This document shows positions 25 to 37,293 of a stretch of DNA of 64,000 nt, in pieces. Numbering within the stretch: position 1 is the stretch's first letter; each line of letters starts with the position of its first letter. The DNA is taken from the NCBI GenBank assembly GCA_026394195.1, contig JAPKYS010000023.1:468621-532620 (forward strand), written 5' to 3'. The notes under the pieces were generated by a model that saw only the letters and a list, made by a program, of their open reading frames with translations, was not told the origin of the DNA and made no database searches. This DNA comes from a bacterium (lineage in GTDB: Bacteria > Electryoneota > B3-LCP). Position numbers and translations under genes: made by a program.

Positions 25-438
25 TTGAACGTGAAGACTAAACTTTATCCAGCAATAACCACACTCATTCTGGTGATTTTCTTTGCCACGGCATTTGCTG
101 CCGGAGTGATCACCAGCTTTGAGGCGCGATCCGAGGGTGATTACGCCTACCTGGAATGGACCTCGGAATCTGAATCCGGTTTGTCAGTTTACCGGGTGGA
201 ACGAAGTCTCGATGCTCTGCAATTCATCTCGGTAGCTGAAGTAGAGCCCACCGGCGACCACTCATCCTACGTGTATGAAGATCACGACCTGGTCAAATCC
301 AGTACGCGTACCTATTACTATCGCATCAATGCGCTGATGAAAGACGGAACCAACAGCTTTAGTTCAGTAAAATCGGTCACCCTGGCTTTTTCCGGTATTC
401 AACAGACCTGGGGGTCGATAAAAGCGCTGTTTAGATAA
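25..438 (+). CDS. Hypothetical secreted or membrane-anchored protein with a fibronectin-III-like beta domain
   Basis: ORF with an N-terminal hydrophobic signal/anchor (LILVIFFATAFAAGV), a YYYRI motif and beta-rich composition. It is followed by an intrinsic terminator. Confidence 0.45.
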   Translation: MNVKTKLYPAITTLILVIFFATAFAAGVITSFEARSEGDYAYLEWTSESESGLSVYRVERSLDALQFISVAEVEPTGDHSSYVYEDHDLVKSSTRTYYYRINALMKDGTNSFSSVKSVTLAFSGIQQTWGSIKALFR

Positions 439-455
439 ACGATTTACTTGCATTA

Positions 456-482
456 AAAGCGGCGAAAGCCGCTTTTTTTTAT
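456..482. terminator. Rho-independent, probably bidirectional terminator
   Basis: Hairpin agcggc-gaaa-gccgct followed by a T8 run. An A-run upstream gives a T-run on the other strand. Confidence 0.6.
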
Positions 483-1285
483 TCTATAACCTCAAACGAG
501 AGCAGGTCTGCCAAGCCGATTGTCCCCTGTTGCGACTTGAATTTTTTCTGTCCGAAGGCGATGAACCACTGGGGAGATCCCGGTAACTGCCTCGTAACTG
601 TTTCCACACCCTCCTGAACGCCTCTGGCAGGATCGGACATGGAATTGCAATAGACCAACGGCACCTTCAACGACTCCCTGTTGCCATCCTTGAAGAGCAC
701 CTCCGTATCGATCCATCGTTTCAACTGCCCAAATTCCAGCACCCGAATTTGCTCAAAAGGAATAAATTCAAAGCTGCTGCCGCGTACGGCTTCCAGGTGC
801 GGACCGATGGTCATATCGGCATCCTGACAATCCGAAAATATGCGAATCTTATTATTGCGGTCTGTCAATCGTACTTGCACAGAAGGAAAGTTGAATCGGC
901 AATTGGCGCTCCATTCTGCCGTCAAACCGTTCGCCATGTAAAGATGAAAGCCCTGCAGTGAATCCTGCCGCCAGTGGCCCCGCTTTAATTCCTTACTAAT
1001 CTTGGTGGGATTCTCGAGTTTCATGCCATCCCAATAATCCAGCCGGGCGCATTCGTAATCGGAGTACCGTAACAGCTCGGTCAAGCCTTTGATCTGCTGT
1101 TGTTCCAGTGGATTTCCCGGGACCAGTAATTGCTTGAAGAGGTGTTGGGCTTCCCGAAAGGCTCCTGAAAAATAATAGGAAAGCGACAGCAGGTATGCCG
1201 CTCCGGTGTGGCGAGGTTCTGCTGTCAACACCTGTTGGAAGTACTTAAACGCATCCTGAAAATGCTTATGGCGGAACTTTTCCAT
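479..1285 (-). CDS. Hypothetical protein with an N-terminal TPR-like region
   Basis: 268-aa ORF. The N-terminus resembles a TPR helix pair (AFKYFQQVLTAEP...AAYLLSLSYYFSGAFREA). The C-terminal part is unknown. There is no alternative in-frame start upstream. Confidence 0.45.
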   Translation of the reverse strand: MEKFRHKHFQDAFKYFQQVLTAEPRHTGAAYLLSLSYYFSGAFREAQHLFKQLLVPGNPLEQQQIKGLTELLRYSDYECARLDYWDGMKLENPTKISKELKRGHWRQDSLQGFHLYMANGLTAEWSANCRFNFPSVQVRLTDRNNKIRIFSDCQDADMTIGPHLEAVRGSSFEFIPFEQIRVLEFGQLKRWIDTEVLFKDGNRESLKVPLVYCNSMSDPARGVQEGVETVTRQLPGSPQWFIAFGQKKFKSQQGTIGLADLLSFEVIE

Positions 1286-1453
1286 TCCGATCTTGATGAG
1301 TTCCGCGACGTCTTGTCGTTCTGCCAGAGTGCTGCCTCGAGTTTATCGCATCATGAATTAAGCCAATATAACCAGCAAAATCAGACAAATCAAATTAATA
1401 TTGCACTTTCTCCCAATTATTGAGATCGTTTTCAGTCTCCCAATTCGACCTGG

Positions 1454-3661
1454 TTAATTCTGCTGAAGCGACAGTGATATTCGCCACTCCCGCAGGGGTG
1501 TCGGAGCAGCATCGACAATGCGATAGGATTGATTGAATAGATTGGTTACGTCGAAACGGCAAGTCAATATCACCTGCTTTCGGTTCAGTGAGAAATCCTG
1601 CCATAGCCCGAAATCCCAAACCTGGTATGGTGATAAGGATTTGGTATTGGCTTCATTGGTAAACCTGCGGCTGACCCAGCGCGCCGTTGCCGTGAGATGA
1701 AGGTACCTGAGGTTCTGCTCCAAGGTAAAAACGGTGTTGTTTACCGGCCGGTAGGGCAATAATCTGCCGTCGGTGTTCGGCTCGTTTGACTGATTGATCG
1801 CATGCATCCAGCGGTGAGTCAGAAAGATATTGTGGGCCCAGTCGCCTTTTCCCAATTGATATTTCCAGATATACTCGATTCCAAAAATACGAGCTTTGCT
1901 TAAATTCAATGGTTTCCACCGATTGTCGAAATCAAGGCGCCAGTAGATCAGGTCCCAAATTTTCCGATCAAAATAGCTGACGCCGAATTCTGCAGACTTG
2001 TATCCCAGAGATGCTGCGATTTCACGATTCTCGGCTCTTTCAGGCTTCAAGTTGGGGTTCCCTTGCGCTTGCAGATCTTCCTGCCAGAATAATGAGTTAA
2101 AAGACGGCAGCCGAAAAGCGCCAGCAGATTCACCGCGCAGCGCAGCCCAGAAGATCTTTCCAGTTTTGACCTCAACCCCAAATCGAGGATAAATAAACAC
2201 TTGCCCGCCGCTGTAGAGATCCGTGCGCACACCGCCGAAGAGACCGGTGTTCACGGGTAGATTCAACTCTTGCAATGGGTTTCCCTGCGCCTGAAAATAA
2301 CCGAATTCATGCAATCGCTCAGCATAACCACCCAAAAGATCAGGTGACCAGAGTCGCTCCAGTCTCGCTCCCGTGCCGAAATTGAGATTCGTCCGTGATT
2401 CGCCCCCCCGACTCCAATCCAGAGAACCGCTGTAAACTTCACCTCGCAAGCTGGAGTTTTTATAAAGCAATGGATACTGTGAACCGTAATCAGTGATACT
2501 ATTCAGACGATAACTCTCACCATGAAGAGTCACTCGAGGCCGGTACCAATTCTCAGCGCCCTTTAGTGAGACATTAAATTCCTGATGATCAGTGGTGGTG
2601 GTGGATTCGTGGACAATTTCAGGCAGAGGCAGATAGTCGGGGTTCTGTCTGCTGGACATGTTTCTGCGATAACTTAGTTCAAGCACGCCCGGTGGATTCA
2701 ATTTAAGGGTCAGGTAATCACGTTGATATTCAGCGTTACTCCTGATCAAGATCTCACCAATGCTGCGCGTGAACAACTCCAAACCATCGTCGGGGACCAC
2801 TCGATACGGATATTTGCCGGTTCCTTCCTGATGCTCGTACATGCTCAGGAATCGCCAATTGGAAACATTCCTGCCGAGGAGAATGCTTCCTGTCTTGTCT
2901 CCATAGTCGGAGTATCCTGTCTTGACCGTCATCCGGTTTCGACCCGGATAAAGAGTAATAATATTTATCACACCTCCAATCGCTTGAGCACTCAGGCTTG
3001 ATGGAGCCTGGGGATAGACTTCGATTTGTTGGATTTCCGACAATGATACCTGTGACAGATCCGCCGTACCATCGCCTGACTCGTTGATGGGGCGCCCGTC
3101 GACTAACACTAAAACCTGGTCGCTGTTGCTGCCGCGCAGGGTTACGCTGCGCTTCCCACCCGGAGATCCATCCGAAGTAATGGTCGCCAGACCATTCTCT
3201 TCGAGGATTTTTCCCAAATCGCTGGTTCCGGTACGGGTGAGAACGTTTCGTCCCAATACGGTGCCGCCGGAAAGATACCCTGCTGAAGGCAGCGCCTTAG
3301 TTTCCACGGTCGTCTCGTCATCCATTTCCAGCACGATAGGAGACAATCGGAACTCCAGGGAAAGTGGGGTATCCGCAGCAAGCAAAACGACTCGACGGGT
3401 GATGGTTTTGTAGCCGATATGCGTTATTTTTAAATCGCAGCCACCCATCGGCAGATTATAAAAATAAAAACGCCCTTCTGCATCGGCTGCAACGCCGAAG
3501 GGCGAACCGTCGATCACGACGTCTGCGCCGGGAAGAGGCAACCCGGTTCGATCATCAAGCACCAGTCCGGAGAGATTTAACAGATTCTGGGCAGCGGCGC
3601 TACAGGCAAAGGCGAGTGCCACACCGATGAATACCAACAATGATTTCATGCGATACGTCAT
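1454..3661 (-). CDS. TonB-dependent outer membrane receptor with an N-terminal carboxypeptidase-regulatory-like domain
   Basis: Signal peptide followed by a CarbopepD-like beta-sandwich (GLVLDDRTGLPLPGADVVIDGS...), then plug-domain motifs (VTLRG, VLVDGRP, IEVYPQAPSSL...AIGGVINIIT) and a 22-strand barrel length. Confidence 0.9.
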   Translation of the reverse strand: MTYRMKSLLVFIGVALAFACSAAAQNLLNLSGLVLDDRTGLPLPGADVVIDGSPFGVAADAEGRFYFYNLPMGGCDLKITHIGYKTITRRVVLLAADTPLSLEFRLSPIVLEMDDETTVETKALPSAGYLSGGTVLGRNVLTRTGTSDLGKILEENGLATITSDGSPGGKRSVTLRGSNSDQVLVLVDGRPINESGDGTADLSQVSLSEIQQIEVYPQAPSSLSAQAIGGVINIITLYPGRNRMTVKTGYSDYGDKTGSILLGRNVSNWRFLSMYEHQEGTGKYPYRVVPDDGLELFTRSIGEILIRSNAEYQRDYLTLKLNPPGVLELSYRRNMSSRQNPDYLPLPEIVHESTTTTDHQEFNVSLKGAENWYRPRVTLHGESYRLNSITDYGSQYPLLYKNSSLRGEVYSGSLDWSRGGESRTNLNFGTGARLERLWSPDLLGGYAERLHEFGYFQAQGNPLQELNLPVNTGLFGGVRTDLYSGGQVFIYPRFGVEVKTGKIFWAALRGESAGAFRLPSFNSLFWQEDLQAQGNPNLKPERAENREIAASLGYKSAEFGVSYFDRKIWDLIYWRLDFDNRWKPLNLSKARIFGIEYIWKYQLGKGDWAHNIFLTHRWMHAINQSNEPNTDGRLLPYRPVNNTVFTLEQNLRYLHLTATARWVSRRFTNEANTKSLSPYQVWDFGLWQDFSLNRKQVILTCRFDVTNLFNQSYRIVDAAPTPLREWRISLSLQQN

Positions 3662-3680
3662 AGTCTCGCACTAAAAAAAA

Positions 3681-5540
3681 TCAATTGGTAAAGTTCCAGG
3701 ATACTCCCCATACTTCCTCCTTGTGCATCATGGTGAATCCTGGTAAGAGTTCATAGTTTCGATCCAGGATATTGTTGACACCCCAGAAAATCTGCACACC
3801 GTACAATCTGGCGCTGATCCTCGCCGATAAGACGAAATCGTTAGGATGCGCCTCCCATCCTCCGGGCACCGGCAGCCAACGTTGTCCCCAGAAATCCCCC
3901 CAGACCTTGAAGCGCAAATCGAGATGGTTTTGGAACGCAGGTTGTCGGTACTGCGTCCAAACGTGCCAGATCACTTCCGGGAAAATTCTCTGTTCTCCCG
4001 AATGAAGCGGCAGATATGAACCTGTCCCTCCGATTTCGATTTGATCTGAAGGTTTTAATCCGACCGAACCTAAAATCCCTTTGGAATCCAGCGAATTGGA
4101 ATTAATCGACCGGATGACATTGCCGTCGACCACCCAGGATATCTGATCCTCTACTCGATAGTGCGCAACGGCAAGATTGCAATCGACGAATCGAGACTTA
4201 ATTTCGCCGCCGAACGAAGCATTGGAATAAGTTTCATTTTTCAAGCTGTGCGTACCCTGTACGTCGAGGCTGGGGTATTGGAAGAAAACGGGGCTATAGG
4301 GCCAATAGTGATCGCTGTGTGTGTAGTCGGCGGACGCTTCCAATCGGGAAGGATTTTGCTGGTGTTGGGATGCCGCTAAAAATAACCTGATCCCTTGATA
4401 GACAGTGAAATCCGTTCGCACGCCCAGATGGCGAGCCGGTGTGAAATCGTCTGATAAATCCAACCCCAAAAAGGTCTGAACGTCCAGAATATCCGAAGCT
4501 CTCCAGACCAAAAAGTTGCTCAGACCGCCGAAGGACGTCGTAGACCAGTTTTGCGATTTCAGACGCCAGCGCGCCAGAGCAGCCTGCAACTTGAGTTCAC
4601 CATCAAACCTGGTTCGACCATATGGGCTTTGCGTGATGACACCCAGCTCTTCCCAGAGATCTTCGCCATTGCTGCCATAGGTATCAATCTGTTGCACGCC
4701 GTAGCCGCGCACAGCATGGGATCGCCAATGCAGCACAGCATCGGTCTCATAGCGTTCGCGCTTGTAGCTTGCAGTCTTGAAGGAAACCTGGGCATTCCTC
4801 CGGTTCTGAGTGACACCCCACCACCCCCAGACCCGGTTTGAATTTTCACTCATCCTGATGCTGTCATGCCAAACGACTTCAGCGCGAAGATTGAGTCCGT
4901 AACCTGCGCTGTGGTACTGTCTCCCGCCATACGTGGATACCTCTCCCCCACCATTCAAGCCAACAGCCGGCGTAATTTTCTCCGCCAGATCGAAATCAAT
5001 ATTTCCCAGTCCGTAGTACCCATCCCGTGCGCCAACATGACTCGATGGGGGTGAATTCTGCAACTCTTTTAATACCACGTCCATCTTCGCACCCGGCGCT
5101 TGAATCGCAAAAGGCTGAAAAATTATATTCGAGAGCGAATGAGGTGGTACCCACCCCAACTCAGGTGATCCTAAAAGAAAATCCCGCAACTCTCTACCCT
5201 TAAAATTGATGCTTAAAACGTCCGGCGACCAACCAAAAAACAAAGCGCGATCCGGTTGAGCATATCCTGCTTGATCCAAGGGGTAGAATCCGGGCATGAC
5301 TCTGATCAGATCGCCGAATTCCTCATAGTCGAAATCAGCGATTTCATCGACGTCAAGTCCAAGCCGAAAAGGTGTCGAATCATTTACGGAGTTGATCAGC
5401 GTACTTTGTGAGCTGTCGATCATGGTGGAATCAGGAATACTTGACTCTAAAATTTGTGAACTGGCTATAACAGCCTGGAAACACAAGAGCGCCAGACACC
5501 AGATTGTACAGTGATCGGGTGTGAATTTGGGATATTTCAT
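3681..5540 (-). CDS. Hypothetical secreted / outer-membrane-associated protein (619 aa)
   Basis: Signal peptide (MKYPKFTPDHCTIWCLALLCFQAVIASSQ) and beta-rich, Trp/Tyr/Gly-rich composition. It sits between the BtuM-like gene and the TonB-dependent receptor in an apparently co-transcribed unit. The start overlaps the upstream gene by 4 nt. Confidence 0.5.
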   Translation of the reverse strand: MKYPKFTPDHCTIWCLALLCFQAVIASSQILESSIPDSTMIDSSQSTLINSVNDSTPFRLGLDVDEIADFDYEEFGDLIRVMPGFYPLDQAGYAQPDRALFFGWSPDVLSINFKGRELRDFLLGSPELGWVPPHSLSNIIFQPFAIQAPGAKMDVVLKELQNSPPSSHVGARDGYYGLGNIDFDLAEKITPAVGLNGGGEVSTYGGRQYHSAGYGLNLRAEVVWHDSIRMSENSNRVWGWWGVTQNRRNAQVSFKTASYKRERYETDAVLHWRSHAVRGYGVQQIDTYGSNGEDLWEELGVITQSPYGRTRFDGELKLQAALARWRLKSQNWSTTSFGGLSNFLVWRASDILDVQTFLGLDLSDDFTPARHLGVRTDFTVYQGIRLFLAASQHQQNPSRLEASADYTHSDHYWPYSPVFFQYPSLDVQGTHSLKNETYSNASFGGEIKSRFVDCNLAVAHYRVEDQISWVVDGNVIRSINSNSLDSKGILGSVGLKPSDQIEIGGTGSYLPLHSGEQRIFPEVIWHVWTQYRQPAFQNHLDLRFKVWGDFWGQRWLPVPGGWEAHPNDFVLSARISARLYGVQIFWGVNNILDRNYELLPGFTMMHKEEVWGVSWNFTN

Positions 5541-6082
5541 GACACGCTCCAGCTTTTGATCCGATTCAGGAAAATGGGTATGATCATGGCAAAGATCATC
5601 GCGTTTGTTGTTATATGCATGGCTGCGAAGGGTATCCCCAGGATCAGAGTAAGCCGGGTCTGTTCCGCGCTGAATCCGGCTGAAATCGGGAAGGAAAGAT
5701 TGGTAAGGAGATCGAAAATGGTGGTCAGAAACGCTCCGAGCGCTCCTAAAAAGAAATGGTAATACCAGGATCCGGATGAGAAATATCTGATTGTGGTGAT
5801 TTTAGAGGCGATTAAACCTCCACAGAAGCCTGTCAGGGTCATGGAGAGCGCCTGTGCGATCAGAAGCGGCGGAGGCGGAAATCCCATCGGGTTGAAGGTC
5901 GAATAGATGGTCTCAGCGACACAGCCGATAATGGAGCCATACAACGGTCCCATGAGTATGCCTGAGAAGAAAATTCCGGCGGTGATCATCTCCAGATTGG
6001 GCACGGGCAGGAATAGATATCCGAGGACCACACAGGTCGCGGTCAACAGCGCGGCGCGAGTTATTTTGTGATGTCTTTTCAA
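5537..6082 (-). CDS. ECF-transporter S-component-like small membrane protein, putative cobalamin transporter (BtuM/CbrT-like)
   Basis: 181 aa with about 5-6 transmembrane helices and a conserved-looking Cys in the GCVAET motif. It lies directly downstream of a cobalamin riboswitch. The start is TTG at 6080-6082. Confidence 0.55.
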   Translation of the reverse strand: MKRHHKITRAALLTATCVVLGYLFLPVPNLEMITAGIFFSGILMGPLYGSIIGCVAETIYSTFNPMGFPPPPLLIAQALSMTLTGFCGGLIASKITTIRYFSSGSWYYHFFLGALGAFLTTIFDLLTNLSFPISAGFSAEQTRLTLILGIPFAAMHITTNAMIFAMIIPIFLNRIKSWSVS

Positions 6083-6087
6083 GATTT

Positions 6088-6285
6088 CTGCAAAAAGAAA
6101 AGGAGCCGAGCAGGCTCCTGAGAGTAGTTCTTCTTAGAACGAACAGAAGAACGTTCTTAGCGCCTTCCCGCGAAGGCTCTCGATTTCCCGTCAGGTGTCT
6201 GGCTCATGCTCCCGAGGAGCAATCACAGTTGCGGGGCAGCGTCGGAATTACACCGTCTTCCCTGATAGTTTCACGGGGAAGTAAT
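6088..6285 (-). promoter_or_regulatory. Cobalamin (B12) riboswitch with an intrinsic-terminator expression platform
   Basis: The minus strand reads cttccccgtgaaactatcaGGGAAgacGGTGtAAtTCCgacgctgCCCCGCAACTGTgattgc...GAGCCAGACACCTGAC (B12 box). It ends in the terminator hairpin ggagcctgctcggctcc plus ttttcttttt, immediately 5' of the 5537-6082 CDS. Confidence 0.8.
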
Positions 6286-6296
6286 TTTAACGAATT

Positions 6297-6644
6297 CTAA
6301 CGGTTGGTCTTCTCCTTGATTCTGGCGGCTTTGCCATGGAGATCACTCAGATAATACAGCTTGGCGCGGCGTACTTTTCCACGTCGTAGCGTCTCGATTT
6401 GGGCAATCCGAGGTGAATGCAACGGGAAGATGCGTTCCACGCCGACTCCGGCAGAAATCTTTCGAACTGTGAACATTTCGTTGATCCCAGCCCCACTCCG
6501 CTGCAAGACGGTCCCCTGGAAGACCTGGATGCGCTCCTTGTCCCCTTCGATGACGCGTACGTGAACTTTGATGGTATCCCCAGCTTTGAATTCAGGTAAG
6601 TCAGTCTTCAATTGCGGAGAAGTAGATAAATGTAGTTCCCGCAT
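6297..6644 (-). CDS. rplS: 50S ribosomal protein L19
   Basis: 115 aa with conserved L19 sequence ([22 protein letters not shown]...). It lies in the conserved rpsP-rimM-trmD-rplS cluster. Confidence 0.95.
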
Positions 6645-6653
6645 GGCGGTCCT

Positions 6654-7370
6654 TTACGATTTATTTTTTTCTTCTATCATCTTTTTCAGGTAACGCTGCC
6701 ACAGATCCGGGCGGCGTTCCCGCGTTGTCTCGATGGCTTTCAAGTCGCGCCAATCTTCGATGCGCTTGTGGTCACCGGAAAGTAATACCTCCGGAACCTG
6801 GTGACCTCTAAAATCTTCCGGACGGGTGTATAGCGGTCCTTCTAACAGACTGGCGGCAAAGCTGTCGGTATTGGCAGATTCGATATCGTTGATCACGCCC
6901 GGAATCAGGCGGGTAACGCCTTCGATCATGATCATGGCCGGCAACTCTCCGCCCGAAAGCACGTAATCGCCAACCGATAACTGCCGATCCACCAATTGGT
7001 CAATAACCCGTTGATCCAGACCTTTATAGCGTCCGCAAATACACAGAATCTGATTTTCTCTGCTCAAATCGGCCAATATCTGCTGATTTAATAGTTCACC
7101 TGATGGTGTGAAATAAATGATTAACGTTTTTTGCGTTCTATCCTTGATGAGTTCTTCCACGGCTTCAAAAACCGGTTCCGGTTTCATAACCATACCCGGT
7201 CCGCCGCCAAAAGGGTAATCATCCACCTGTTGATGCTTGCTTCTCGCCCAGGACCGCAGTTGATAGATATTCAGTTCCAGAAGTCCCTTCTGCAAAGCAC
7301 GCTTGATCAGCGCGTCGGCTTTGAATCCGCTGAAAAGACCGGGGAACAAAGTTACAATATCGATGCGCAT
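6654..7370 (-). CDS. trmD: tRNA (guanine37-N1)-methyltransferase
   Basis: MRIDIVTLFPGLF... TrmD signature and SPOUT fold motifs. Cluster context supports the call. Confidence 0.95.
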   Translation of the reverse strand: MRIDIVTLFPGLFSGFKADALIKRALQKGLLELNIYQLRSWARSKHQQVDDYPFGGGPGMVMKPEPVFEAVEELIKDRTQKTLIIYFTPSGELLNQQILADLSRENQILCICGRYKGLDQRVIDQLVDRQLSVGDYVLSGGELPAMIMIEGVTRLIPGVINDIESANTDSFAASLLEGPLYTRPEDFRGHQVPEVLLSGDHKRIEDWRDLKAIETTRERRPDLWQRYLKKMIEEKNKS

Positions 7371-7384
7371 TCAACCGCTTAAGT

Positions 7385-7903
7385 TCAATCCTGAAGACCA
7401 TCCAGCAAGCGGACGATCATTTTGTTTTGATCCAGATCAATCGTAAGTACGACGTCAGAAATGGCTGGTATTAACAATTCACCGGTTTGCGTCTCTATCT
7501 GATAAATATCATGGTGTGAAAATTCCATCACGTCTTTCAACCGTCCAATTAGGATTCCATCCTCCCCATAAACTTCGATACCGATAAGATCTCTTATGAA
7601 GTATTCATCAATCGGAGGTTTATTCAGTTGTTTTCTCTGAACATAAAGTTCTCTGCCCCGCCAACTTTCAGCCTCTTCAATGCTATCCAATCCTTCCACC
7701 TTGATGGTTGCATATCCTGACGAAATCCGTATGTTGAGGATTTTCAATTTATGCGGTGGTTCATCGCTATGAATAAAGTATAGCGATTTGTACTTCCCAA
7801 GTTCTTCCGGATCACGTGTGTATGGCATGACCCGCAGTTCACCCTTAATTCCAACTGGTCTAATTACCCTGGCAACTTCCACAAATGCGTTAGCGTCTTC
7901 CAT
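7385..7903 (-). CDS. rimM: 16S rRNA processing protein RimM
   Basis: VGIKGELRV motif, PRC barrel and cluster context. Confidence 0.9.
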   Translation of the reverse strand: MEDANAFVEVARVIRPVGIKGELRVMPYTRDPEELGKYKSLYFIHSDEPPHKLKILNIRISSGYATIKVEGLDSIEEAESWRGRELYVQRKQLNKPPIDEYFIRDLIGIEVYGEDGILIGRLKDVMEFSHHDIYQIETQTGELLIPAISDVVLTIDLDQNKMIVRLLDGLQD

Positions 7904-7906
7904 CCT

Positions 7907-8158
7907 TTAGTCACTGCGATTTTGAGAACCATCCATGATCTCCAGGTTGGCTCGCTTTCCCTGCCTTGCGGCTACGGCAGCCAAGAGTGTCCGGAGGGAT
8001 TTGGCGGTACGCCCTTCTTTACCGACAACTCGGCCGATGTCGCTTTCACCCACGGTCAAGCGGAAGAGATAACCCCTCTCATTCTGCTCCTCGTTCACGC
8101 GGACCATGTCGGGGTCTTCCACCAGATGTTTTACGATAAATTCAATAAATTCCTTCAT
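7907..8158 (-). CDS. KH-domain RNA-binding protein (UPF0109/YlqC-like)
   Basis: GRVVGKEGRTAKSLRTL KH motif, 83 aa, between rpsP and rimM. Confidence 0.85.
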   Translation of the reverse strand: MKEFIEFIVKHLVEDPDMVRVNEEQNERGYLFRLTVGESDIGRVVGKEGRTAKSLRTLLAAVAARQGKRANLEIMDGSQNRSD

Positions 8159-10839: not shown

Positions 10840-10885
10840 GGAATTTTTGGTCGTCCTGCTGGTATCTGACGATAATCGATTTAAG

Positions 10886-10959
10886 TGGGCGATATTGGAG
10901 TTGAACCAACGACCTCTGGTATGTGAGACCAGCGCTCTAACCAACTGAGCTAATCGCCC
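10886..10959 (-). tRNA. tRNA-Val (anticodon CAC)
   Basis: gggcgatTAGCTCAGTTGGTTAGAGCgctggtctCACataccagaggtcGTTGGTTCAACTCCAATatcgccca folds as a cloverleaf. It has a 7-bp acceptor stem, a GTTC T-loop and anticodon loop cuCACau. Confidence 0.8.
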
Positions 10960-12640: not shown

Positions 12641-13480
12641 ATGAGTACACGAATCAATCACAACATCCTATCTCTGACGGCACAGCGTAATATCTGGAGC
12701 ACGCAAAATGATCTGGATAAAGCCGTGAACCGCTTGTCGTCCGGGCTGCGTATCAACAACGCATGGGATGATCCCGCGGGGTTGGCGATCTCCGAGCGAT
12801 TCCGCGCTCAGATTGCATCAATGGATGAAGCTGAGCGCAATGCCAATGCCAACATTAACGTAATGCAGACTGCGGAAGGCGCTCTCTCCGTCATCGATGA
12901 GAAGCTGATTCGTATGCGCGCATTAGCGGTAGAGGCTTCCAACGGAGCTTTAACGGATACCGATCGTATCGCGCTGGACGTCGAATTCCAGCAACTTCGA
13001 TCGGAGATCACGCGAATCGCCAATGTTACCAATTACAACGGGTTGTACCTGCTTAATGGCGACTTCTCAACAGGGACGCCGGGAATTAAATTCCACATCG
13101 GCACTTATAATATCCAGAATCAAGACTACTACTACGTCAACTTCAATGCAATGACTGCATCTTCCCTGAGTCTCGAAGGTACGAACCTGTTGAACACAAC
13201 CAGCGCACAGCTATCGATTGGATCGATTGACGTCGCCATCGAATCCAAAGACACTGAGCGCACCAGAATTGGAGCCTACGTCAACCGGCTGCAAGGAACG
13301 ATTCAGCAACTTATGATTGCGCGGGAAAATTCCTCATCGTCAGAATCGCAAATCCGCGATGCCGACATCGCAGCGGAAATGTCCAATTTCATCAGGGCTC
13401 AGATCCTGATGCAGACAGGCATTTCCATGCTGGCTCAAGCCAACATGGTCCCGCAGATGGTATCGAAGCTCGTCGGTTAG
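12641..13480 (+). CDS. Flagellin (short form, N and C conserved domains, no hypervariable insert)
   Basis: N-terminus MSTRINHNILSL...LSSGLRINNAWDDPAGLAISERFRAQI and C-terminus RIGAYVNRLQGTIQQL...DADIAAEMSNFIRAQILMQTGISMLAQAN. AGGAA RBS upstream. Confidence 0.9.
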   Translation: MSTRINHNILSLTAQRNIWSTQNDLDKAVNRLSSGLRINNAWDDPAGLAISERFRAQIASMDEAERNANANINVMQTAEGALSVIDEKLIRMRALAVEASNGALTDTDRIALDVEFQQLRSEITRIANVTNYNGLYLLNGDFSTGTPGIKFHIGTYNIQNQDYYYVNFNAMTASSLSLEGTNLLNTTSAQLSIGSIDVAIESKDTERTRIGAYVNRLQGTIQQLMIARENSSSSESQIRDADIAAEMSNFIRAQILMQTGISMLAQANMVPQMVSKLVG

Positions 13481-26091: not shown

Positions 26092-26859
26092 TCAGATGAT
26101 CCCACGCTCGCTGTGCTCGATAAAGTCGATGATATGTTCAATATCCGGGGTAATTTCCATCTCTTCCCGGATGCGCGCGATGCCCTGTGATACATTCAAA
26201 TCGCTCAAATAGATCAATCTATAGGCATGTTTGATCTGGCTAATCCTTTCGGCGGTAAATCCACGCCGCTTCAGTCCTACCGTATTCAATCCCTCAAATT
26301 TTAACGGTTCATTGCCCGACATGATGAAGGGTGGAATATCTTTGACCACACGGAATCCTCCACCGACGAAGGCGTGACAACCAATTCGCACGAACTGATG
26401 CACCGGAACCAACCCTCCGACGGTCACCCAATCTTCCAACTTGCAATGACCGGCAACGTTCGCAGAGTTCACTAAAATGACCTTGTTCCCAAAGATACAG
26501 TCGTGAGCAACATGGGTGTAAGCCATCAATAAACAGTCGGATCCGATGATGGTCTTACCTGTCGCATCGGACCCACGGTGGATCGTGGCAAATTCACGGA
26601 TGATGGTGTTATCTCCGATGATGGCGACTGTCGATCCACCCTTAAATTTCAGATCTTGTGGTTCTTCGCTGATCACGGCTCCCTTAAAAACCCGCACATT
26701 CTTCCCCAGGCGGGCGCCGGTAGCCAGCAAGACATGGGGACCAATTTCACAACCGGAATCGATGACAACGTCGGATTCGACGACTACGAAAGGCGCAATT
26801 TTTACGTCTTCTGCAATCTGAGCCCCGGGATCAACTACGGCAGTTGGATGAATATTCAC
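26092..26859 (-). CDS. lpxA: Acyl-ACP--UDP-N-acetylglucosamine O-acyltransferase
   Basis: Left-handed beta-helix hexapeptide repeats and the LpxA C-terminal helical domain. Confidence 0.95.
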   Translation of the reverse strand: MNIHPTAVVDPGAQIAEDVKIAPFVVVESDVVIDSGCEIGPHVLLATGARLGKNVRVFKGAVISEEPQDLKFKGGSTVAIIGDNTIIREFATIHRGSDATGKTIIGSDCLLMAYTHVAHDCIFGNKVILVNSANVAGHCKLEDWVTVGGLVPVHQFVRIGCHAFVGGGFRVVKDIPPFIMSGNEPLKFEGLNTVGLKRRGFTAERISQIKHAYRLIYLSDLNVSQGIARIREEMEITPDIEHIIDFIEHSERGII

Positions 26860-28259
26860 ACTTCCTCCTTGTCGCGCACGACCGCTGACATAATCGCTTC
26901 CGCGACGACGACGTCATTCACATAGGCTTTACCCTTCATACGGCAGATTCCGCGGCGGAAAAACTCAAGTTCAATCTTAAGAAATAATTGATCCCCAGGA
27001 ATCACGGGTTTGCGGAAGCGGACTTCATCCATACCTGTGAAAAAGACCAGCTTCGTCTCCGGATGTTCCAGGGAGTTCAATAACAACAATCCACCAGCTT
27101 GTCCGAGCGCTTCGATGATCAAGACTCCAGGCATGATGGGATATCCCGGGAAATGACCCTGAAAGAAGTGCTCGTTATAAGTGACGCATTTAACTCCGGT
27201 TACTCTTTCGCCCGGCGAAAGATCAATAATTTTATCCACCAGCAGGAAAGGATAGCGGTGCGGGAGTATGCGTGTAATGGCAGCGGCATCGAAGATAAAA
27301 TCTTTGGAACTCTTCCCCTGATAGGTTCGGATGATTTTGTTCTTCTCATATTCTTTTCGTATCATCCGTACCAGTTCGACGTGAGCAGCATGACCGGCTC
27401 GAGCAGCTAGGATGTGTCCTTTGATCGGGAAACCCAACAAGGCCAGATCTCCGATCAAATCGAGCAATTTATGGCGCACCGGCTCATTGTAGTAGCGCAG
27501 TTTTCTGCCGTCCAGAATTCCGTTGTCGCCGCGGATAACGTCTGTATTGAGATTGAACATCTTTTTCAACCGGTCAAATTCTGAATCATCTATTTCACGG
27601 TCCAGAATGACGACCGAATTTTCCAGATTGCCACCCTTGATCAATCCCTGTTCCTTCAATGACTCAACCTCAGATAGAAAGCAGAAGGTGCGCGATGAAG
27701 CGAATTCCGAAACAAATTCCTCCTGCAGATCATAGAGTGAGGTATATTGAGTCCCGAGCGCCGGATTGCGGTAATCGATCATATAGGTGATGCGAAAGGT
27801 CGGCGCGGGCACGACGACCAGATCGATCCCTTTCTCCTCATTGTGATAAATAATGGTTTTCTCGATTTCCAAATACTCTTTGGGCGCAGTCTGCTCCTCG
27901 ATACCAATTGTATTAATTGCCTCAACAAATGGCATCGCAGAACCGTCACCGACCGGCGGTTCACCTGCGGTAAGATCAATGAGGACATTGTCAATCTCAA
28001 GACCGCTAAGAGCCGCCATGACATGTTCCACCGTGTGGATCCTGATATCTTTAATGCCCAGAATCGTCCCCCGCGAAATATCTACGACGTGATCAATCGT
28101 CGCTGGAATGATGGGTGAGTTGGGGATATCCTGCCGTCGGAATCTGATTCCATGTCCTTCCGGCGCGGGATGAAAGGTCAATGAGCATGGTTCGCCGGTG
28201 TGCAAGCCAATCCCGGAATAGGATATCGAACCCTTGATCGTACGTTGCGTTTTAATCAT
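26856..28259 (-). CDS. lpxC-fabZ: Bifunctional UDP-3-O-acyl-GlcNAc deacetylase / 3-hydroxyacyl-ACP dehydratase (LpxC-FabZ fusion)
   Basis: N-terminal LpxC (SGIGLHTGE, HTVEHVMAAL) and C-terminal FabZ hotdog (HFPGYPIMPGVLIIEALGQ). Confidence 0.95.
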   Translation of the reverse strand: MIKTQRTIKGSISYSGIGLHTGEPCSLTFHPAPEGHGIRFRRQDIPNSPIIPATIDHVVDISRGTILGIKDIRIHTVEHVMAALSGLEIDNVLIDLTAGEPPVGDGSAMPFVEAINTIGIEEQTAPKEYLEIEKTIIYHNEEKGIDLVVVPAPTFRITYMIDYRNPALGTQYTSLYDLQEEFVSEFASSRTFCFLSEVESLKEQGLIKGGNLENSVVILDREIDDSEFDRLKKMFNLNTDVIRGDNGILDGRKLRYYNEPVRHKLLDLIGDLALLGFPIKGHILAARAGHAAHVELVRMIRKEYEKNKIIRTYQGKSSKDFIFDAAAITRILPHRYPFLLVDKIIDLSPGERVTGVKCVTYNEHFFQGHFPGYPIMPGVLIIEALGQAGGLLLLNSLEHPETKLVFFTGMDEVRFRKPVIPGDQLFLKIELEFFRRGICRMKGKAYVNDVVVAEAIMSAVVRDKEEV

Positions 28260-28269
28260 GCTGTTTGTC

Positions 28270-29301
28270 TTATTTTTTGGCTTTCAAATCTGCAATCTCT
28301 TTTTCCATCGAATTGATACGACGCAAAAGAGCGGGTAACTTGTTTAAGGATGCTTCAACGTACAATTGATCCCGGTGCAACCTGGCATGCCTGCCGGAAA
28401 TAAAAACTCCTTCAGGAAAGGATTTGGAAACTCCGGATTGAGCTCCGATTTTGACTTCATTCCCGATGTCGATGTGTCCCACAAACCCGACCTGACCGCC
28501 AATCATGCATCTCCTGCCGATTTTGGTTGATCCAGAAATACCCGTTTGGGCAGCAATGACTGTGTTGGCGCCGATGATGACGTTGTGGGCGACCTGGATC
28601 AGATTGTCCAGTTTAACTCCTCGCTCAATTTTCGTTGCCCCCAAGGTAGCCCGGTCAATGGTGCATCCGGCGCCGATTTCAACGTCATCTTCGATGATAA
28701 CCGTGCCTAACTGCGGAATCTTTTCATAGTCTCCCTGTTCCTTGGGAACGAACCCGAAACCATCCGAACCGATGACTGAATTGTCCTGAATGATGACGCG
28801 ACGTCCAATCTGCACCTTGTGGCGTATGGAGACACCAGCCCTGACAACCGAGTCATCGCCGATAATCACATGATGGCCCAGACAAGCATTCGGGTGTATG
28901 CTCACGTTCCTGCCCAGGGTGCAGCCATCGCCGATCACAACCTGAGCGGCAATGCGACATCCCTCACCGATGGTGGTTTCCTTACCAACAACCGCCGTTG
29001 GATGGACTCCGACGTCAAGCTGTCGTTCTGGCTTGAGGAACAGTTCCAGCAGCTTGGCGAAACAGAGATGCGGATCTGCCACACGAATGAGCGTGCGGCT
29101 TGCGGCGGGTTGTTTTTCTGAAATCAGAATGACTGAAGCTTTGGTCGATTCCAGATATTTTTCATACTTTGGGTTCGCCAGGAAAGTGACGTCACCCGTA
29201 CCGGCTTCCTCGATCTTGGCAATTCCTGTGACGATAGTTTCAGGATCGCCTTCCAGAGCGCCGCCCAATTTATCGGCGAGTTCTCTTGCTGTATAAGCCA
29301 T
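28270..29301 (-). CDS. lpxD: UDP-3-O-(3-hydroxyacyl)glucosamine N-acyltransferase
   Basis: LpxD N-terminal domain plus hexapeptide beta-helix. Confidence 0.95.
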   Translation of the reverse strand: MAYTARELADKLGGALEGDPETIVTGIAKIEEAGTGDVTFLANPKYEKYLESTKASVILISEKQPAASRTLIRVADPHLCFAKLLELFLKPERQLDVGVHPTAVVGKETTIGEGCRIAAQVVIGDGCTLGRNVSIHPNACLGHHVIIGDDSVVRAGVSIRHKVQIGRRVIIQDNSVIGSDGFGFVPKEQGDYEKIPQLGTVIIEDDVEIGAGCTIDRATLGATKIERGVKLDNLIQVAHNVIIGANTVIAAQTGISGSTKIGRRCMIGGQVGFVGHIDIGNEVKIGAQSGVSKSFPEGVFISGRHARLHRDQLYVEASLNKLPALLRRINSMEKEIADLKAKK

Positions 29302-29310
29302 GAGATTTCG

Positions 29311-29826
29311 CTACTTGTTTAACTCATCAAGGAGCAGTTGCGTCATGTCGTAATCGTCTTTGGCATAGACGATGTTGCCCACCGCAGCATCCCAGATGAC
29401 GTCATACCCACCGTCTTTGCCCAATTTTTGGATTAATGTATTCACCTTATCCAGAATCGGCTGGGTTAATACTTTATTGCGCTGATAAAGTTTTCCCTGC
29501 TCACCCCAGACGTCCGCCTGGAATTTCTGATAATTCAGGTATTTTTCTTGAATTTTCTGCATCTTCTCTGATTTCTTTTCTTCGGAAAGCAGCAGGCTCT
29601 GGTTTTGGAGTTCATCCTCCATTTTGGAGATCTCATCTTCCATTTTCTTGGCTTCGTCCAACCACTTCTTCTGCTCATCATCGAGAGTCCGCTGAGCTTC
29701 GATGGACTCCTGGAATTCCGCCATGATGCGCTGAGAGTGAATGTAACCGATCTTCAACTCTTTGGCGAAAACCGGAGCCGCAATGACTAAACCGCCCAAA
29801 AGGAGCGTCAACAGTCTGGTACGCAT
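29311..29826 (-). CDS. skp: Periplasmic chaperone Skp/OmpH
   Basis: Signal peptide, coiled-coil-rich 171 aa, positioned between bamA and lpxD. Confidence 0.85.
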   Translation of the reverse strand: MRTRLLTLLLGGLVIAAPVFAKELKIGYIHSQRIMAEFQESIEAQRTLDDEQKKWLDEAKKMEDEISKMEDELQNQSLLLSEEKKSEKMQKIQEKYLNYQKFQADVWGEQGKLYQRNKVLTQPILDKVNTLIQKLGKDGGYDVIWDAAVGNIVYAKDDYDMTQLLLDELNK

Positions 29827-29884
29827 TGATTCCTCGCTTTATCTTGTATTTGATTTTTCAGCAGTCGTTCTGACTGGTTTCTGA

Positions 29885-32275
29885 TCAGAAACCGCGCCCG
29901 AACTGAAAGTGCGGCATCCATTCCCCATGGCGCTGACCGGTCGTCGGATTGAAATAATCCAATCCATAACCATAATCCAGACCGATCAAACCGATCATGG
30001 GCATGTACAACCTGACGCCCAGCCCGACAGAACGGTTCAGATCGTAGATATCTGTATCTTCGAAGTTATACCAAGTATTGCCTGCCTCGGCAAAGCCGAG
30101 CAGATAAATGGTGGGACTGGGCACCACCGGAACACGCAGTTCAATCGACTGCTTGAACATAGTCTTCCCACCCAGGGCATACGATCCACTCTGTGGTCCA
30201 ACGGTGCGTTCGTCATACCCGCGCAGCGGCACGCCCAGCGACAATCCGGATCCACCCATGAAGAACATTTCAATATACGGCACTGCCAATGCTGAATTGG
30301 ACAGGGGTCCAATCAGCCCCATTTCGGTATCCGTATAGAGCACTAACTTTCCCAGAATTGGCAGATACCACTGTGAGCTGAAGATGTGTTTATGGTATTG
30401 GTCATCTCCTTGAAAAGGACCTCCAGTAATCTCGAGGGAGTATTGATTCACTGATCCAGTGGTCGGAAATTCGGGGTTATCTCTCGAATCGCGTGCAACG
30501 ATGGTGGTCACACCGGAAGAGAGCCGAGGGACACCCTCCAGCAATCCCTGCGGATTTGAAGCGGCGAATGAAGTGCTGAAATTCGAATACACGGCTCGTT
30601 CGAGGCGATAGATCCAGTCAACCCGGAAATAGTCGTCGGGCCAGCGGAGACGCCTTCCGACCCGAAGTGACCCACCGAAAATTCTTTCATCAAATCCGTA
30701 GTAGCTTCCGCCCCTGCGGGTGGCGAAGAAACTGACGCCCAACAAGGTCGGAGTATCCCTGAACCAGGGGTCGGTGAAATTAAGTGAAAACGTCCGGTAG
30801 ATGCTTCCAAATTGCCAATCCAGGCTGAATCGCTTACCCGTACCGAACAGGTTGGGCATGCTGAACCCCAGCGAACCAATTAAACCATCCCGTTCGGAAT
30901 AACCGGCTGAGGTCTGCACCTGGTCGGTCGATTTCTCTTCAACAGCCACGAAGAGATCAACCTCACGGTCGTTCACCGGCTGCACGTCCGGAATGATATT
31001 CTGGAAGTAGTTCAATATGGTTACTTCACGAGCAGAACGACGCAGTTTCGAGACGTCGAAGGTGTCACCCGGGTTCAGAACGAATTCTCTGCGGATTACG
31101 TTTTCACGCGTTTTGGTATTGCCTTCGATGTTGATGCGACGAACCTTAAATTCGTTCCCTTCAAAGACTCTGAAGTGAATGTTAATGGTGTCCTGGTTGA
31201 CTGGAACCTCCACCGGAGATACATTGGCGTAGATGTAACCGCGATCGTAGTAGAGATTGGTCAGTCTCTCCTTGACGCTACGATCCAGTTTATCCTTGTT
31301 ATAGATCTCACCGGTGTTGATTAAGAGCTGTTTCTTGAGTTCGGAATCTTTGTAGAGAGTGTTTCCGGAAAAACTGATTTCGCCGAAGTAATAGAGCACG
31401 CCAGAGTCAATCCAGACTCCAATGTTGATATGGCGTTTGTCTGCACTATAGGTGATGGAATCTGCGGCGATGGTGGCATCACGATAGCCGTGATTCTTGT
31501 AGTATTCCGCCAAATTTTTTAAATCGTCCTTGTACTCCGTTTCTTTGAATTCGCCTGAACGAAAGATCGGCGCTTTCTCTTTGGTTTTCTTCATTTGACC
31601 GCGCAGCTTCCCATCGGCGAAAGGATCATCCGGTACGATCCACTCGACAGAACTATTCAGCCAGGAAAGCGGGAAGAAAAATGGTTTCTTCTTGTGAGCT
31701 TCGTTGCCATAGAAGGTAATGTCCTTGATCTTTACTTTCTTTCCCTCATGAATGCCAATGCGCAGGACGACTTTGCCGCTGTCTGTGCTGGTGAAAGTTT
31801 CGGTGTTAACCTCCGCCAGTAAATACCCCTTTTCAGCGTACATGTCCTTCAATTTGTTCTTGGCGCTGATGACCTGATCCGGTCGTAAAATCTGCCCGGG
31901 CAAGAAATCTACAGCCGTCTCAATCTCATCCTTCTTCAACTTCTTGTTACCGGAAACCTCAATTTTATCGAGGCGGGGATACTCGGCAACGATAATTTTA
32001 AAGAAGGCTCCATCCGGTACTTCTTTTTCCAGAATAACCTGAACGTCGGAAAATAATCCCAATTTCCAGATCTGCTTGATGGCGAGCTGAATGTCGTCAC
32101 CGGTAATTTCTGAACCGACAATCAAGCCGGAGTTGGCGCGAATCAGTCCTTCATCGGCGGTCTTGTTGCCTTCGACCGAAAGTCCTAAGAGCCGCAGTTT
32201 TTGCACTTGTGCAAAAACCAGGGAATTCAGACTGAAAATTGCCAGTATTATAACGATTATTCTTTGAGATTTCAT
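29885..32275 (-). CDS. bamA: Outer membrane protein assembly factor BamA
   Basis: POTRA repeats and a C-terminal Omp85 barrel (…HFQFGRGF terminus). 796 aa. Confidence 0.95.
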   Translation of the reverse strand: MKSQRIIVIILAIFSLNSLVFAQVQKLRLLGLSVEGNKTADEGLIRANSGLIVGSEITGDDIQLAIKQIWKLGLFSDVQVILEKEVPDGAFFKIIVAEYPRLDKIEVSGNKKLKKDEIETAVDFLPGQILRPDQVISAKNKLKDMYAEKGYLLAEVNTETFTSTDSGKVVLRIGIHEGKKVKIKDITFYGNEAHKKKPFFFPLSWLNSSVEWIVPDDPFADGKLRGQMKKTKEKAPIFRSGEFKETEYKDDLKNLAEYYKNHGYRDATIAADSITYSADKRHINIGVWIDSGVLYYFGEISFSGNTLYKDSELKKQLLINTGEIYNKDKLDRSVKERLTNLYYDRGYIYANVSPVEVPVNQDTINIHFRVFEGNEFKVRRINIEGNTKTRENVIRREFVLNPGDTFDVSKLRRSAREVTILNYFQNIIPDVQPVNDREVDLFVAVEEKSTDQVQTSAGYSERDGLIGSLGFSMPNLFGTGKRFSLDWQFGSIYRTFSLNFTDPWFRDTPTLLGVSFFATRRGGSYYGFDERIFGGSLRVGRRLRWPDDYFRVDWIYRLERAVYSNFSTSFAASNPQGLLEGVPRLSSGVTTIVARDSRDNPEFPTTGSVNQYSLEITGGPFQGDDQYHKHIFSSQWYLPILGKLVLYTDTEMGLIGPLSNSALAVPYIEMFFMGGSGLSLGVPLRGYDERTVGPQSGSYALGGKTMFKQSIELRVPVVPSPTIYLLGFAEAGNTWYNFEDTDIYDLNRSVGLGVRLYMPMIGLIGLDYGYGLDYFNPTTGQRHGEWMPHFQFGRGF

Positions 32276-32380
32276 AGTTTAAGCGCTGCCCCGCGGAGTA
32301 TCATAGCAAATTAAGAAAATTTAGGTCATGATTAAAGCAAAAAATGGTCAATTCCTCTTGCTACAGGGATGCCTGTCCGC

Positions 32381-36595: not shown

Positions 36596-37293
36596 CGAGC
36601 GAAAATTCCGTGAGGATCAATGTCCTTGCATAAATTCGCATAAATCCACTGAACTGGGTTTGGATCACTATTTTGCGCGGTCTTTAGGTTCGGTATATCA
36701 GTAAGCGGCAGCATTTTTTCGATATTCAACGTCAGTCGGGTTACAACGCCAAATCTGCCTGCTGATCCAATTATAAATGACCAATAGTCAAATCCTGCAA
36801 CGTTTTTTATCGCAGAACTACCGAACCTTAGCGCTCTCCCTTCAGAGTCGATCAGCTCCAGCCCTAAGAGTCGGCGACGTATCTCCGCATGACGTAAACC
36901 GCCATGGTCGGGTCCTAATACTGCGCCGGCAATCGTTCCAGGGTAATCCGCCAATACTGCGGGGAAATCAAGGTCTGAACCTGCCATTTGCTGCGCCAGA
37001 TTGGTGGTCAGTAATCCCGCTTCGACAACGACAATGGCATCCATGGGTCTGATTTCGAGTAATTGATTCATCCCCACCATCAGTAAAAATATCATATCGT
37101 CGGGTGGTTGATAGTTTGCGGCAAAGCTCGAACCCGTTCCGGTCGAGCAAATTCGTTTTCTTTTCTCCGCGGCAACTTGGATTAGATTTGAGATCGCCGC
37201 TTCATCTTGTGGAACCGCAACCATTCTGGGGAGCAACCGCTCGACTAATTGGCATCCGGAAAGACGAATCGCTTCACACAGCACTGTATCCAT
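36592..37293 (-). CDS. FAD-binding (PCMH-type) oxidoreductase domain protein, GlcE-like
   Basis: FAD_binding_4-like motifs (STGTGSS, GLELIDSEGRALRFG). Short (233 aa), so the substrate domain may be missing. Confidence 0.5.
   Translation of the reverse strand: MDTVLCEAIRLSGCQLVERLLPRMVAVPQDEAAISNLIQVAAEKRKRICSTGTGSSFAANYQPPDDMIFLLMVGMNQLLEIRPMDAIVVVEAGLLTTNLAQQMAGSDLDFPAVLADYPGTIAGAVLGPDHGGLRHAEIRRRLLGLELIDSEGRALRFGSSAIKNVAGFDYWSFIIGSAGRFGVVTRLTLNIEKMLPLTDIPNLKTAQNSDPNPVQWIYANLCKDIDPHGIFAR

Follow-up and report, generated by a model that had tools for sequence, protein, structure and literature searches.

The crossing of the inner membrane by vitamin B12 is unexplained for roughly half of the B12-dependent bacteria, namely those without BtuFCD (PMC6072759), and a locus from an uncultured lineage of the FCB (Fibrobacteres-Chlorobi-Bacteroidetes) group raises the question in a concrete form. 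It lies on the minus strand of a 64,000-nucleotide stretch of contig JAPKYS010000023.1 (assembly GCA_026394195.1, positions 468,621 to 532,620; Electryoneota, B3-LCP), which is referred to as the window. A cobalamin riboswitch behind the ribosomal-protein gene rplS is followed there by a gene for an S-component of the energy-coupling factor (ECF) type and by two genes for TonB-dependent receptors (TBDRs), that is, TBDR-A and TBDR-B. Which substrate does this cassette carry, and across which membranes? As judged from the homologies of its parts, it is quite probably a cobalamin-repressed, two-membrane corrinoid uptake system. The features that bear on this answer are, from rplS downwards and in window coordinates:

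6297..6644, minus strand: rplS, encoding ribosomal protein L19 (PF01245, 167 bits), the gene that closes an ffh-rpsP-KH-rimM-trmD-rplS block.
6173..6307, minus strand: cobalamin riboswitch aptamer (RF00174), a short form with the P6 peripheral extension cut to ~10 nt.
6162..6177, minus strand: P13-like hairpin GCCUUC-GCGG-GAAGGC, seen in the sequence and kept in nine aligned leaders (pairs 141-146/151-156).
6127..6152, minus strand: second platform hairpin, GUUCUUCU...AGAAGAAC, from leader alignment and folding.
6092..6119, minus strand: intrinsic-terminator-like hairpin AGGAGCC-ugcuc-GGCUCCU followed by UUUCUUUUU, 9 nt ahead of the TTG start codon.
5537..6082, minus strand: ECF-type S-component, CbrT-like, 181 aa, TTG start (PF12822).
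3681..5540, minus strand: TBDR-A, a divergent outer-membrane protein of the TonB-dependent-transporter fold, 619 aa, with signal peptide, plug and ~22-strand barrel as modelled with AlphaFold2 and Foldseek.
1454..3661, minus strand: TBDR-B, a BtuB-like TonB-dependent transporter, 735 aa (PF13715, PF07715, PF00593), with an N-terminal carboxypeptidase-regulatory-like domain.

The RNA is recognised both by its conserved sequences and by its covariance score. On the minus strand, GGGAAGACGGTGTAATTCCG and GCTGCCCCGCAACTGTGA are located at ~6263-6220 and the B12 box GAGCCAGACACCTGAC at ~6205-6190, and all the cobalamin-riboswitch motifs quoted in an initial annotation of this DNA were found there; GAGCCAGACACC is present together with GGGAAGACGGUG...CCCCGCAACUG. 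A 12-kb search with Infernal and Rfam returned RF00174 at 6173-6307 over all model positions (1-189), with a score of 47.1 bits (E 2.1e-9) where the gathering score is 31.5. The hit foreseen by that annotation was thus obtained, with an aptamer which starts 22 nt past the right edge (6285) that had been drawn for it. In the alignment of nine orthologous leaders, compensatory changes occur in 14 of 35 predicted pairs, and the helices concerned are those of the aptamer, P13 and hairpin 2. Because the P6 peripheral extension comprises only ~10 nt, in comparison with ~62 nt normally, the window aptamer is by its sequence a short, class-II-like form, and the short "AdoCbl" model RF01482 is the top-scoring model in two orthologous loci. 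The rest of the window showed no Rfam family apart from one tRNA-Val, and no further riboswitch.

For a comparison of neighborhoods, the contigs that carry homologues of TBDR-A or the S-component were located. In 20 loci, including the window, a riboswitch of clan CL00101 stands ahead of the S-component (35-120 bits in the 19 others). The order rplS, riboswitch, S-component, TBDR-A and TBDR-B is found again in 19 further metagenomic loci, from candidate division LCP-89 and other metagenome-assembled genomes of the FCB group, the named records being LCP-89 and "Calditrichaeota". TBDR-A always comes after the S-component and TBDR-B is next in every locus that is long enough; where the S-component and TBDR-A are split into two genes, these mostly overlap by 1-16 nt. 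Since the same order and the riboswitch persist while protein identity to the window falls from ~66% to 24%, the arrangement is, by this comparison, deeply conserved, beyond chance. A layout distinct from both btuBFCD and the Bacteroides btuBG had been proposed at the outset and is supported.

The S-component matches PF12822 with 42.3 bits against a gathering score of 30.7, residues 6-167 lying on model positions 2-168 of 169. The single 181-aa sequence found no match among solved PDB structures; a profile of 31 homologues found 6FNP_A as the best PDB match, over its full length (E 1.7e-7), with BioY as the runner-up (3e-3). The entry 6FNP holds ECF-CbrT, the ECF transporter by which Lactobacillus delbrueckii imports cobalamin and cobinamide (PMC5997447). 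The 182-aa membrane chain of this entry can only be CbrT. The NCBIfam folT-family model gave 29.5 bits, below its cut-off of 60. In helix 1, A11-x3-A15 is nearly invariant (at least 90% of the 31 homologues) and aligns with ALLTA of CbrT; the AxxxA motif is the site at which S-components contact EcfT.

A "BtuM-like" identity, which the initial annotation had joined to that of an ECF S-component of ~180 aa, was examined and rejected. The part on the S-component stands with PF12822, whereas no BtuM chain was matched at E <=10 by sequence or by profile, and the profile leads to CbrT instead. BtuM of Thiobacillus denitrificans has a cobalt-ligating Cys80; in the 31 homologues, no column that is invariant or 90% conserved holds a cysteine. 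The nearest solved relative of the protein, at the level of the profile, is therefore the B12-specific CbrT and not BtuM, and the protein is predicted to be the subunit that binds corrinoids at the inner membrane and translocates them.

How the S-component is energized divides the evidence more evenly. Docking on an ECF module (EcfAA'T) that would be encoded elsewhere is slightly favored, given that the AxxxA motif is conserved and that the protein resembles CbrT. The competing view, which falls somewhat short of an even chance, is that the S-component acts alone, like BtuM or a solitary BioY, in a genome without EcfT and EcfA and with no ECF ATPase module at all. Consistent with it, no ECF module was seen in or beside the cassette in ~25 loci, nor among 20 scanned open reading frames (ORFs) of the window, and there is a precedent in Gram-negative bacteria without ECF modules, which pair BtuM with BtuB (PMC6072759). 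Solitary action fits less well with the retention of A11 and A15 in register with the CbrT motif, and with the lack of BtuM similarity and of a conserved cysteine. Moreover, the absence of a module nearby says little, as the genes of a shared ECF module are normally remote from those of its S-components.

The second gene of the cassette starts within the first, its start codon overlapping the S-component stop by 4 nt (ATGA). TBDR-A had no match in Pfam (E <=0.01), in NCBIfam (E <=0.1) or among PDB sequences, and had been described as an unknown secreted protein of 619 aa. The AlphaFold2 model gives it an identity. With 8 sequences the mean pLDDT was 35.8, and after addition of fusion-family sequences it rose to 81.4, with a pTM of 0.81, on a 23-sequence alignment. 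The model has an N-terminal plug inside a 22-stranded barrel, and Foldseek related it to PirA, PfeA, FepA, Cir and BtuB (E 1e-23 to 1e-21, TM 0.7-0.83); superposition on BtuB in the TonB complex (2gsk_A) gave TM 0.78/0.81 and an rmsd of 3.9 Å. An exhaustive profile search collected 319 relatives, some distant ones of which carry the Pfam Plug and TonB barrel domains. According to the model, TBDR-A is a complete, very divergent TonB-dependent transporter, and the earlier description gives way to this one. It could serve for the uptake of a second class of corrinoids or as a dedicated partner of the S-component.

A recent duplication as the origin of TBDR-A and TBDR-B was rejected, the two having no significant mutual BLASTP similarity. 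The organism has an outer membrane to hold such barrels, since the window encodes an LpxA-like acyltransferase, Skp/OmpH, BamA (796 aa, POTRA and Omp85) and a TamB-like protein (1404 aa) in an outer-membrane biogenesis block at 26092-37293 (minus strand).

In sister clades of the FCB group, one ORF at the orthologous locus encodes both the S-component and TBDR-A. The initial annotation had overlooked these fusions. Distant relatives of TBDR-A with 745-870 aa bear an N-terminal ECF S-component domain; among the 150 best representatives at 50% identity, 11 have this domain. A search with the fused proteins gave 15 clusters from independent assemblies, covering 88-100% of the query length. At the DNA level the frame is uninterrupted in seven loci, six of which have the B12 context:

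L015, 8001-10313: fused ORF.
L016, 95-2398: fused ORF.
L017, 8001-10304: fused ORF.
L019, 4184-6661: fused ORF.
L025, ~1100-3340: fused ORF.
L026, ~4395-6629: fused ORF.

The order in the fused loci is rplS, riboswitch (76-120 bits), fusion and TBDR-B, and the S-component half shares 44% identity with the 181-aa protein of the window. Because gene order, riboswitch and this identity agree, the fused and split forms are, by sequence comparison, orthologous loci. An assembly artefact was considered and rejected: the 15 clusters come from JGI, ENA, NCBI and Logan assemblies, besides the seven loci with an uninterrupted frame. No description of a fusion between an ECF S-component and a TonB-dependent transporter was found in the literature library that was searched. 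As a "Rosetta stone", the fusion strongly ties together two classes of transporters normally studied apart.

The junction has a constant composition. In all fused members, the last helix of the S-component is followed by a basic stretch, a hydrophobic core of 10-14 residues and an AXA-type site (for instance SMA/QE, VNA/SE and VQA/ED, the slash marking the site). Both termini of S-components are cytoplasmic, and therefore an internal signal peptide at this place has the right topology for the export of the barrel. A signal peptidase could thus release the barrel half of the fusion.

The alternative is that the S-component and TBDR-A constitute a physical trans-envelope unit, that is, an unrecognized, envelope-spanning vitamin importer in the form of an uncleaved, tethered polyprotein in the fused clades or of a strict 1:1 complex in the split clade. 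In such a unit the outer-membrane barrel would pass B12 straight on to the binder in the inner membrane, by a physical relay that would take the place of a periplasmic binding protein, possibly with an unconventional energization. The recurrence of the fusion, the conserved translational coupling and the lack of a BtuF-like gene in any locus point in this direction. So does a disordered stretch of 40-100 residues between signal peptide and plug (pLDDT <50 at residues 27-54). On the contrary, every fused protein has kept a canonical AXA site, which favors cleavage and separation; the fusion may merely secure co-expression, and an interaction of the partners is a proposal made from sequence. A trans-envelope unit is accordingly regarded as unlikely, and the reading retained is the one in which barrel and S-component act in their respective membranes.

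Three further observations concern the fused loci. The riboswitch site has a different form in the two sets of clades: it is short in the clade of the window (112-135 nt, P6 extension lost, 35-60 bits) and full-length in the fused clades (176-198 nt, 76-120 bits; L015 7624-7821, L019 3840-4021, L026 3807-3984). By sequence, the riboswitch class seems to have changed at one and the same orthologous site. In L017, ~750 nt separate the riboswitch terminator from the fusion gene, and inverted repeats and short tandem repeats (AAGTTGAC x3, CCCAAAG x5, CTTAAC repeats) abound in the stretch at 7300-8000, where a mobile or repeat element may have been inserted. In L018 (4433-9388), a more distant fusion (P0058, 868 aa) has QueH and a radical-SAM gene on one side and a DUF1848 gene on the other, and Rfam found nothing in the region. 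This context suggests that such fusions handle a further micronutrient as well, possibly a queuosine precursor.

TBDR-B begins 19 nt after TBDR-A. Its best solved matches are BtuB of Escherichia coli (9e-18), followed by BtuB1-3 of Bacteroides. A SusC-like receptor had been proposed for this gene, and the SusC/RagA candidate was rejected: TIGR04056 reached 55.5 bits against a cut-off of 368.25 and in the N-terminal region only, the protein has 735 aa in comparison with ~1000 aa, and no SusD-like neighbor is present. Beside TBDR-B, a BtuG-like propeller is missing in the window, where the next gene encodes a TPR/ImpE protein. In the fused clades, a beta-propeller gene comes after TBDR-B (L019 8938-10230; L015 12419-13468; L016 4511-5569; L017 12964-14016). 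The propeller of L019 (430 aa, DUF5074) matches BtuG1 in the BtuB1-BtuG1 complex (8blw_B, E 5.6e-5), and that of L015 (349 aa) is YVTN/NHL-like. By homology, these propellers support TBDR-B as the equivalent of BtuB.

The substrate itself may be questioned. B12 riboswitches commonly control ECF-type cobalt transporters (CbiMNQO) as well as some TBDRs, and control by a riboswitch alone cannot separate the uptake of complete cobalamin from that of cobalt or of a B12 building block such as cobinamide or a lower-ligand base. The presence of two different TBDRs in one operon could reflect two substrates, and CbrT binds cobinamide as well as cobalamin (PMC5997447). A faint match of the S-component to the NCBIfam CbiM model (E 0.081) would favor cobalt; at 12.8 bits against a cut-off of 205 it is negligible next to the CbrT match (E 1.7e-7), and no CbiN, CbiQ or CbiO genes are adjacent. 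In addition, the nearest solved relatives of TBDR-B are BtuB proteins, and in the sister clades it is paired with a propeller resembling BtuG, the protein which captures cobamides. Import of cobalt or of a precursor in place of cobalamin is thus quite unlikely, and cobalamin or a related complete corrinoid is kept as the probable cargo.

The stop codon of rplS overlaps the 5′ edge of the riboswitch match in the window, and rplS is directly upstream in 19 of the 20 riboswitch-bearing loci, the remaining one being cut off at that point. In the clade of the window, the aptamer starts ~-10 to +20 nt from the rplS stop, as measured from gene calls and Rfam coordinates. No sigma-70-like site was found inside rplS on the minus strand, in a search that modelled sites of this kind and not of the Bacteroidota type. 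Because there is no promoter space between the rplS stop and the aptamer, polymerase would arrive from the rpsP-rimM-trmD-rplS operon, which is probably the source of the transcript. With the aptamer lying right against the rplS stop, read-through from the ribosomal-protein operon is probably under the control of the switch. This placement, which had also escaped the initial annotation, suggests a conditional terminator by which a nutrient-uptake operon borrows a ribosomal-protein promoter.

The expression platform is of the terminator type, as initially proposed. The terminator (AGGAGCC-tgctc-GGCTCCT plus TTTCTTTTT in DNA letters, 6119-6092) was recovered independently by a terminator search, and a GC-rich hairpin with a U-run lies between aptamer and start codon in 19 of 19 leaders checked, although the stem sequences differ. 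The counterpart of the second hairpin carries its own U-run in several orthologues (L003, L007, L012, L020, L022). The GCGGG of the P13-like hairpin loop region is complementary to CCCGC of the aptamer loop L5, and this hairpin is a candidate kissing loop that would couple ligand binding to the platform, a role assigned from general knowledge of the cobalamin riboswitch class. Over the nine leaders, RNAalifold proposed that AGGGA of the aptamer pairs, at long range, with the terminator's 3′ arm. The minimum-free-energy (MFE) fold of the platform was not better than that of shuffled sequences (z -1.27).

The view that the element is a mere terminator of the rplS operon or a decayed relic, ahead of transport genes unrelated to B12, is already effectively refuted by the Rfam matches in the window and in orthologous loci: the element does occupy the exact spot expected of an operon terminator and its window score (47 bits) is only moderate, but the full-length match beats the curated threshold with an intact B12 box, orthologous sites score up to 119.8 bits, the element is kept across lineages whose proteins are just 24-45% identical, and the downstream proteins resemble B12 transporters.

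Taken as a corrinoid uptake system under cobalamin repression, the cassette would work as follows. With B12 bound to the aptamer, the L5-L13 contact would stabilize the P13 hairpin, and the downstream hairpin or hairpins with the U-run would then end transcription, so that the switch would also be what terminates the ribosomal-protein operon. Under B12 scarcity, read-through into the three uptake genes would be expected. The BtuB-like TBDR-B and TBDR-A would bring corrinoids across the outer membrane into the periplasm, where the CbrT-like S-component would bind them and carry them across the inner membrane. The S-component and TBDR-A would be made in fixed proportion, through the 4-nt overlap here and as one polypeptide in the sister clades.

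Several points weigh against this reading. Ligand, regulation and transport are predictions from homology. The CbrT similarity appears at the profile level alone, and the residues by which CbrT binds its ligand are not defined, which leaves no residue-by-residue check of specificity. TBDR-A has no recognizable family signature: the plug (PF07715) and barrel (PF00593) domains stay below threshold, and there is no clear TonB box, with a weak D-S-[LI] motif in the disordered N-terminus as an uncertain candidate. BtuB equivalog models top the NCBIfam list for TBDR-B, the best being TonB-B12, yet they remain far below their cut-offs (TIGR01779 with 121.3 bits against 599.7, NF007926 with 99.1 against 836). 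No single antiterminator pairing was pinned down by RNAalifold or by MFE folding, and a non-sigma-70, Bacteroidota-like promoter may lie inside rplS. Furthermore, no ECF module, ABC ATPase/CbiQ family, TonB-ExbBD or BtuFCD was found among the 20 mid-size window ORFs scanned, all of which are housekeeping genes (lpxA, uppS, panBC, bacA, surE, an ECF sigma factor and others).

Past TBDR-B, two further features follow:

479..1285, minus strand: protein with TPR and ImpE domains, 268 aa (PF07024, 47.7 bits).
455..476, no strand assigned: palindromic hairpin AAAAGCGGC-gaaa-GCCGCUUUU with A and T runs on its flanks, from the terminator search.

The TPR-like protein that had been noted beyond a 168-nt gap indeed has TPR and ImpE domains, ImpE being usually linked to type VI secretion. 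The gene has the same orientation as TBDR-B, with no terminator and two weak promoter-like sites in the gap, and is possibly co-transcribed with the cassette. Among the loci reaching that far, it was found in four only (the window, L011, L021 and L022). It is a subclade add-on outside the conserved cassette, and the four-gene operon proposed initially reduces to a conserved unit of three genes. The hairpin at 455-476 is likely a bidirectional terminator, closing both the minus-strand unit and a convergent ORF of 137 aa.

This convergent ORF (25-438, plus strand) has no Pfam hit and is present with 50-68% identity at the same position in most orthologous loci, where a DUF4835 gene usually comes after it. 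In the LCP-89-type locus L007 (14787-20474), TBDR-B is followed on the same strand by a third TBDR-like gene (863 aa, CarboxypepD_reg and Plug) and by a 1025-aa protein without a Pfam hit. On the other side of the cassette, the tRNA-Val (CAC) of the window (10885-10959, minus strand) lies between a CTP-transferase-like and a PfkB kinase gene. Nearby, a flagellin gene occupies 12641-13480 (plus strand), and both it and the tRNA are syntenic with related loci.

The cassette shares features with four known systems and differs from each. ECF-CbrT of L. delbrueckii (6FNP; PMC5997447) contains the nearest solved relative of the S-component, with a comparable size (~180 aa) and an aligned AxxxA motif. 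Unlike that system, the cassette belongs to a diderm host of the FCB group, is coupled to two outer-membrane TBDRs behind an rplS-adjacent riboswitch, and shows no ECF module nearby. In the BtuM and BtuB pair of Proteobacteria (PMC6072759), similarly, a small protein of the S-component fold replaces BtuFCD and is co-localized with an outer-membrane TBDR of the BtuB type; here, however, there is neither a BtuM sequence match nor a conserved equivalent of Cys80, a second, divergent TBDR is present, and no fusion of this kind is described for BtuM.

The BtuB-BtuG systems of Bacteroides (8BLW, 8BMX, 8P98) resemble the cassette in having a TBDR of the FCB group with BtuB matches under a cobalamin riboswitch and, in the fused sister clades, a BtuG-like propeller after TBDR-B. 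The clade of the window departs from them in lacking a BtuG-like gene, in having an ECF S-component in place of BtuFCD and in the additional TBDR-A. As in E. coli btuB/BtuFCD, a cobalamin riboswitch precedes the outer-membrane B12 transporter; the best match of TBDR-B is E. coli BtuB (9e-18), and TBDR-A is BtuB-sized with TM 0.78-0.83. In contrast to E. coli btuB, which is mainly under translational control, the platform here is of the terminator type, the aptamer is short and class-II-like, the inner-membrane system is another one and the site lies behind rplS.

Each part of the cassette, whether the cobalamin riboswitch, the ECF S-component or the TonB-dependent transporters, is of a known kind. 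What is new is that a CbrT-like S-component stands together with two unrelated TBDRs, that the TBDR-A family escapes Pfam, that S-component::TBDR fusions recur and that the position behind rplS is fixed. Most of the interest resides in the fusion and less in the riboswitch call itself. The cassette offers a concrete, riboswitch-marked candidate for a B12 route in an uncultured FCB-group lineage, by way of a CbrT-like S-component behind TBDRs.

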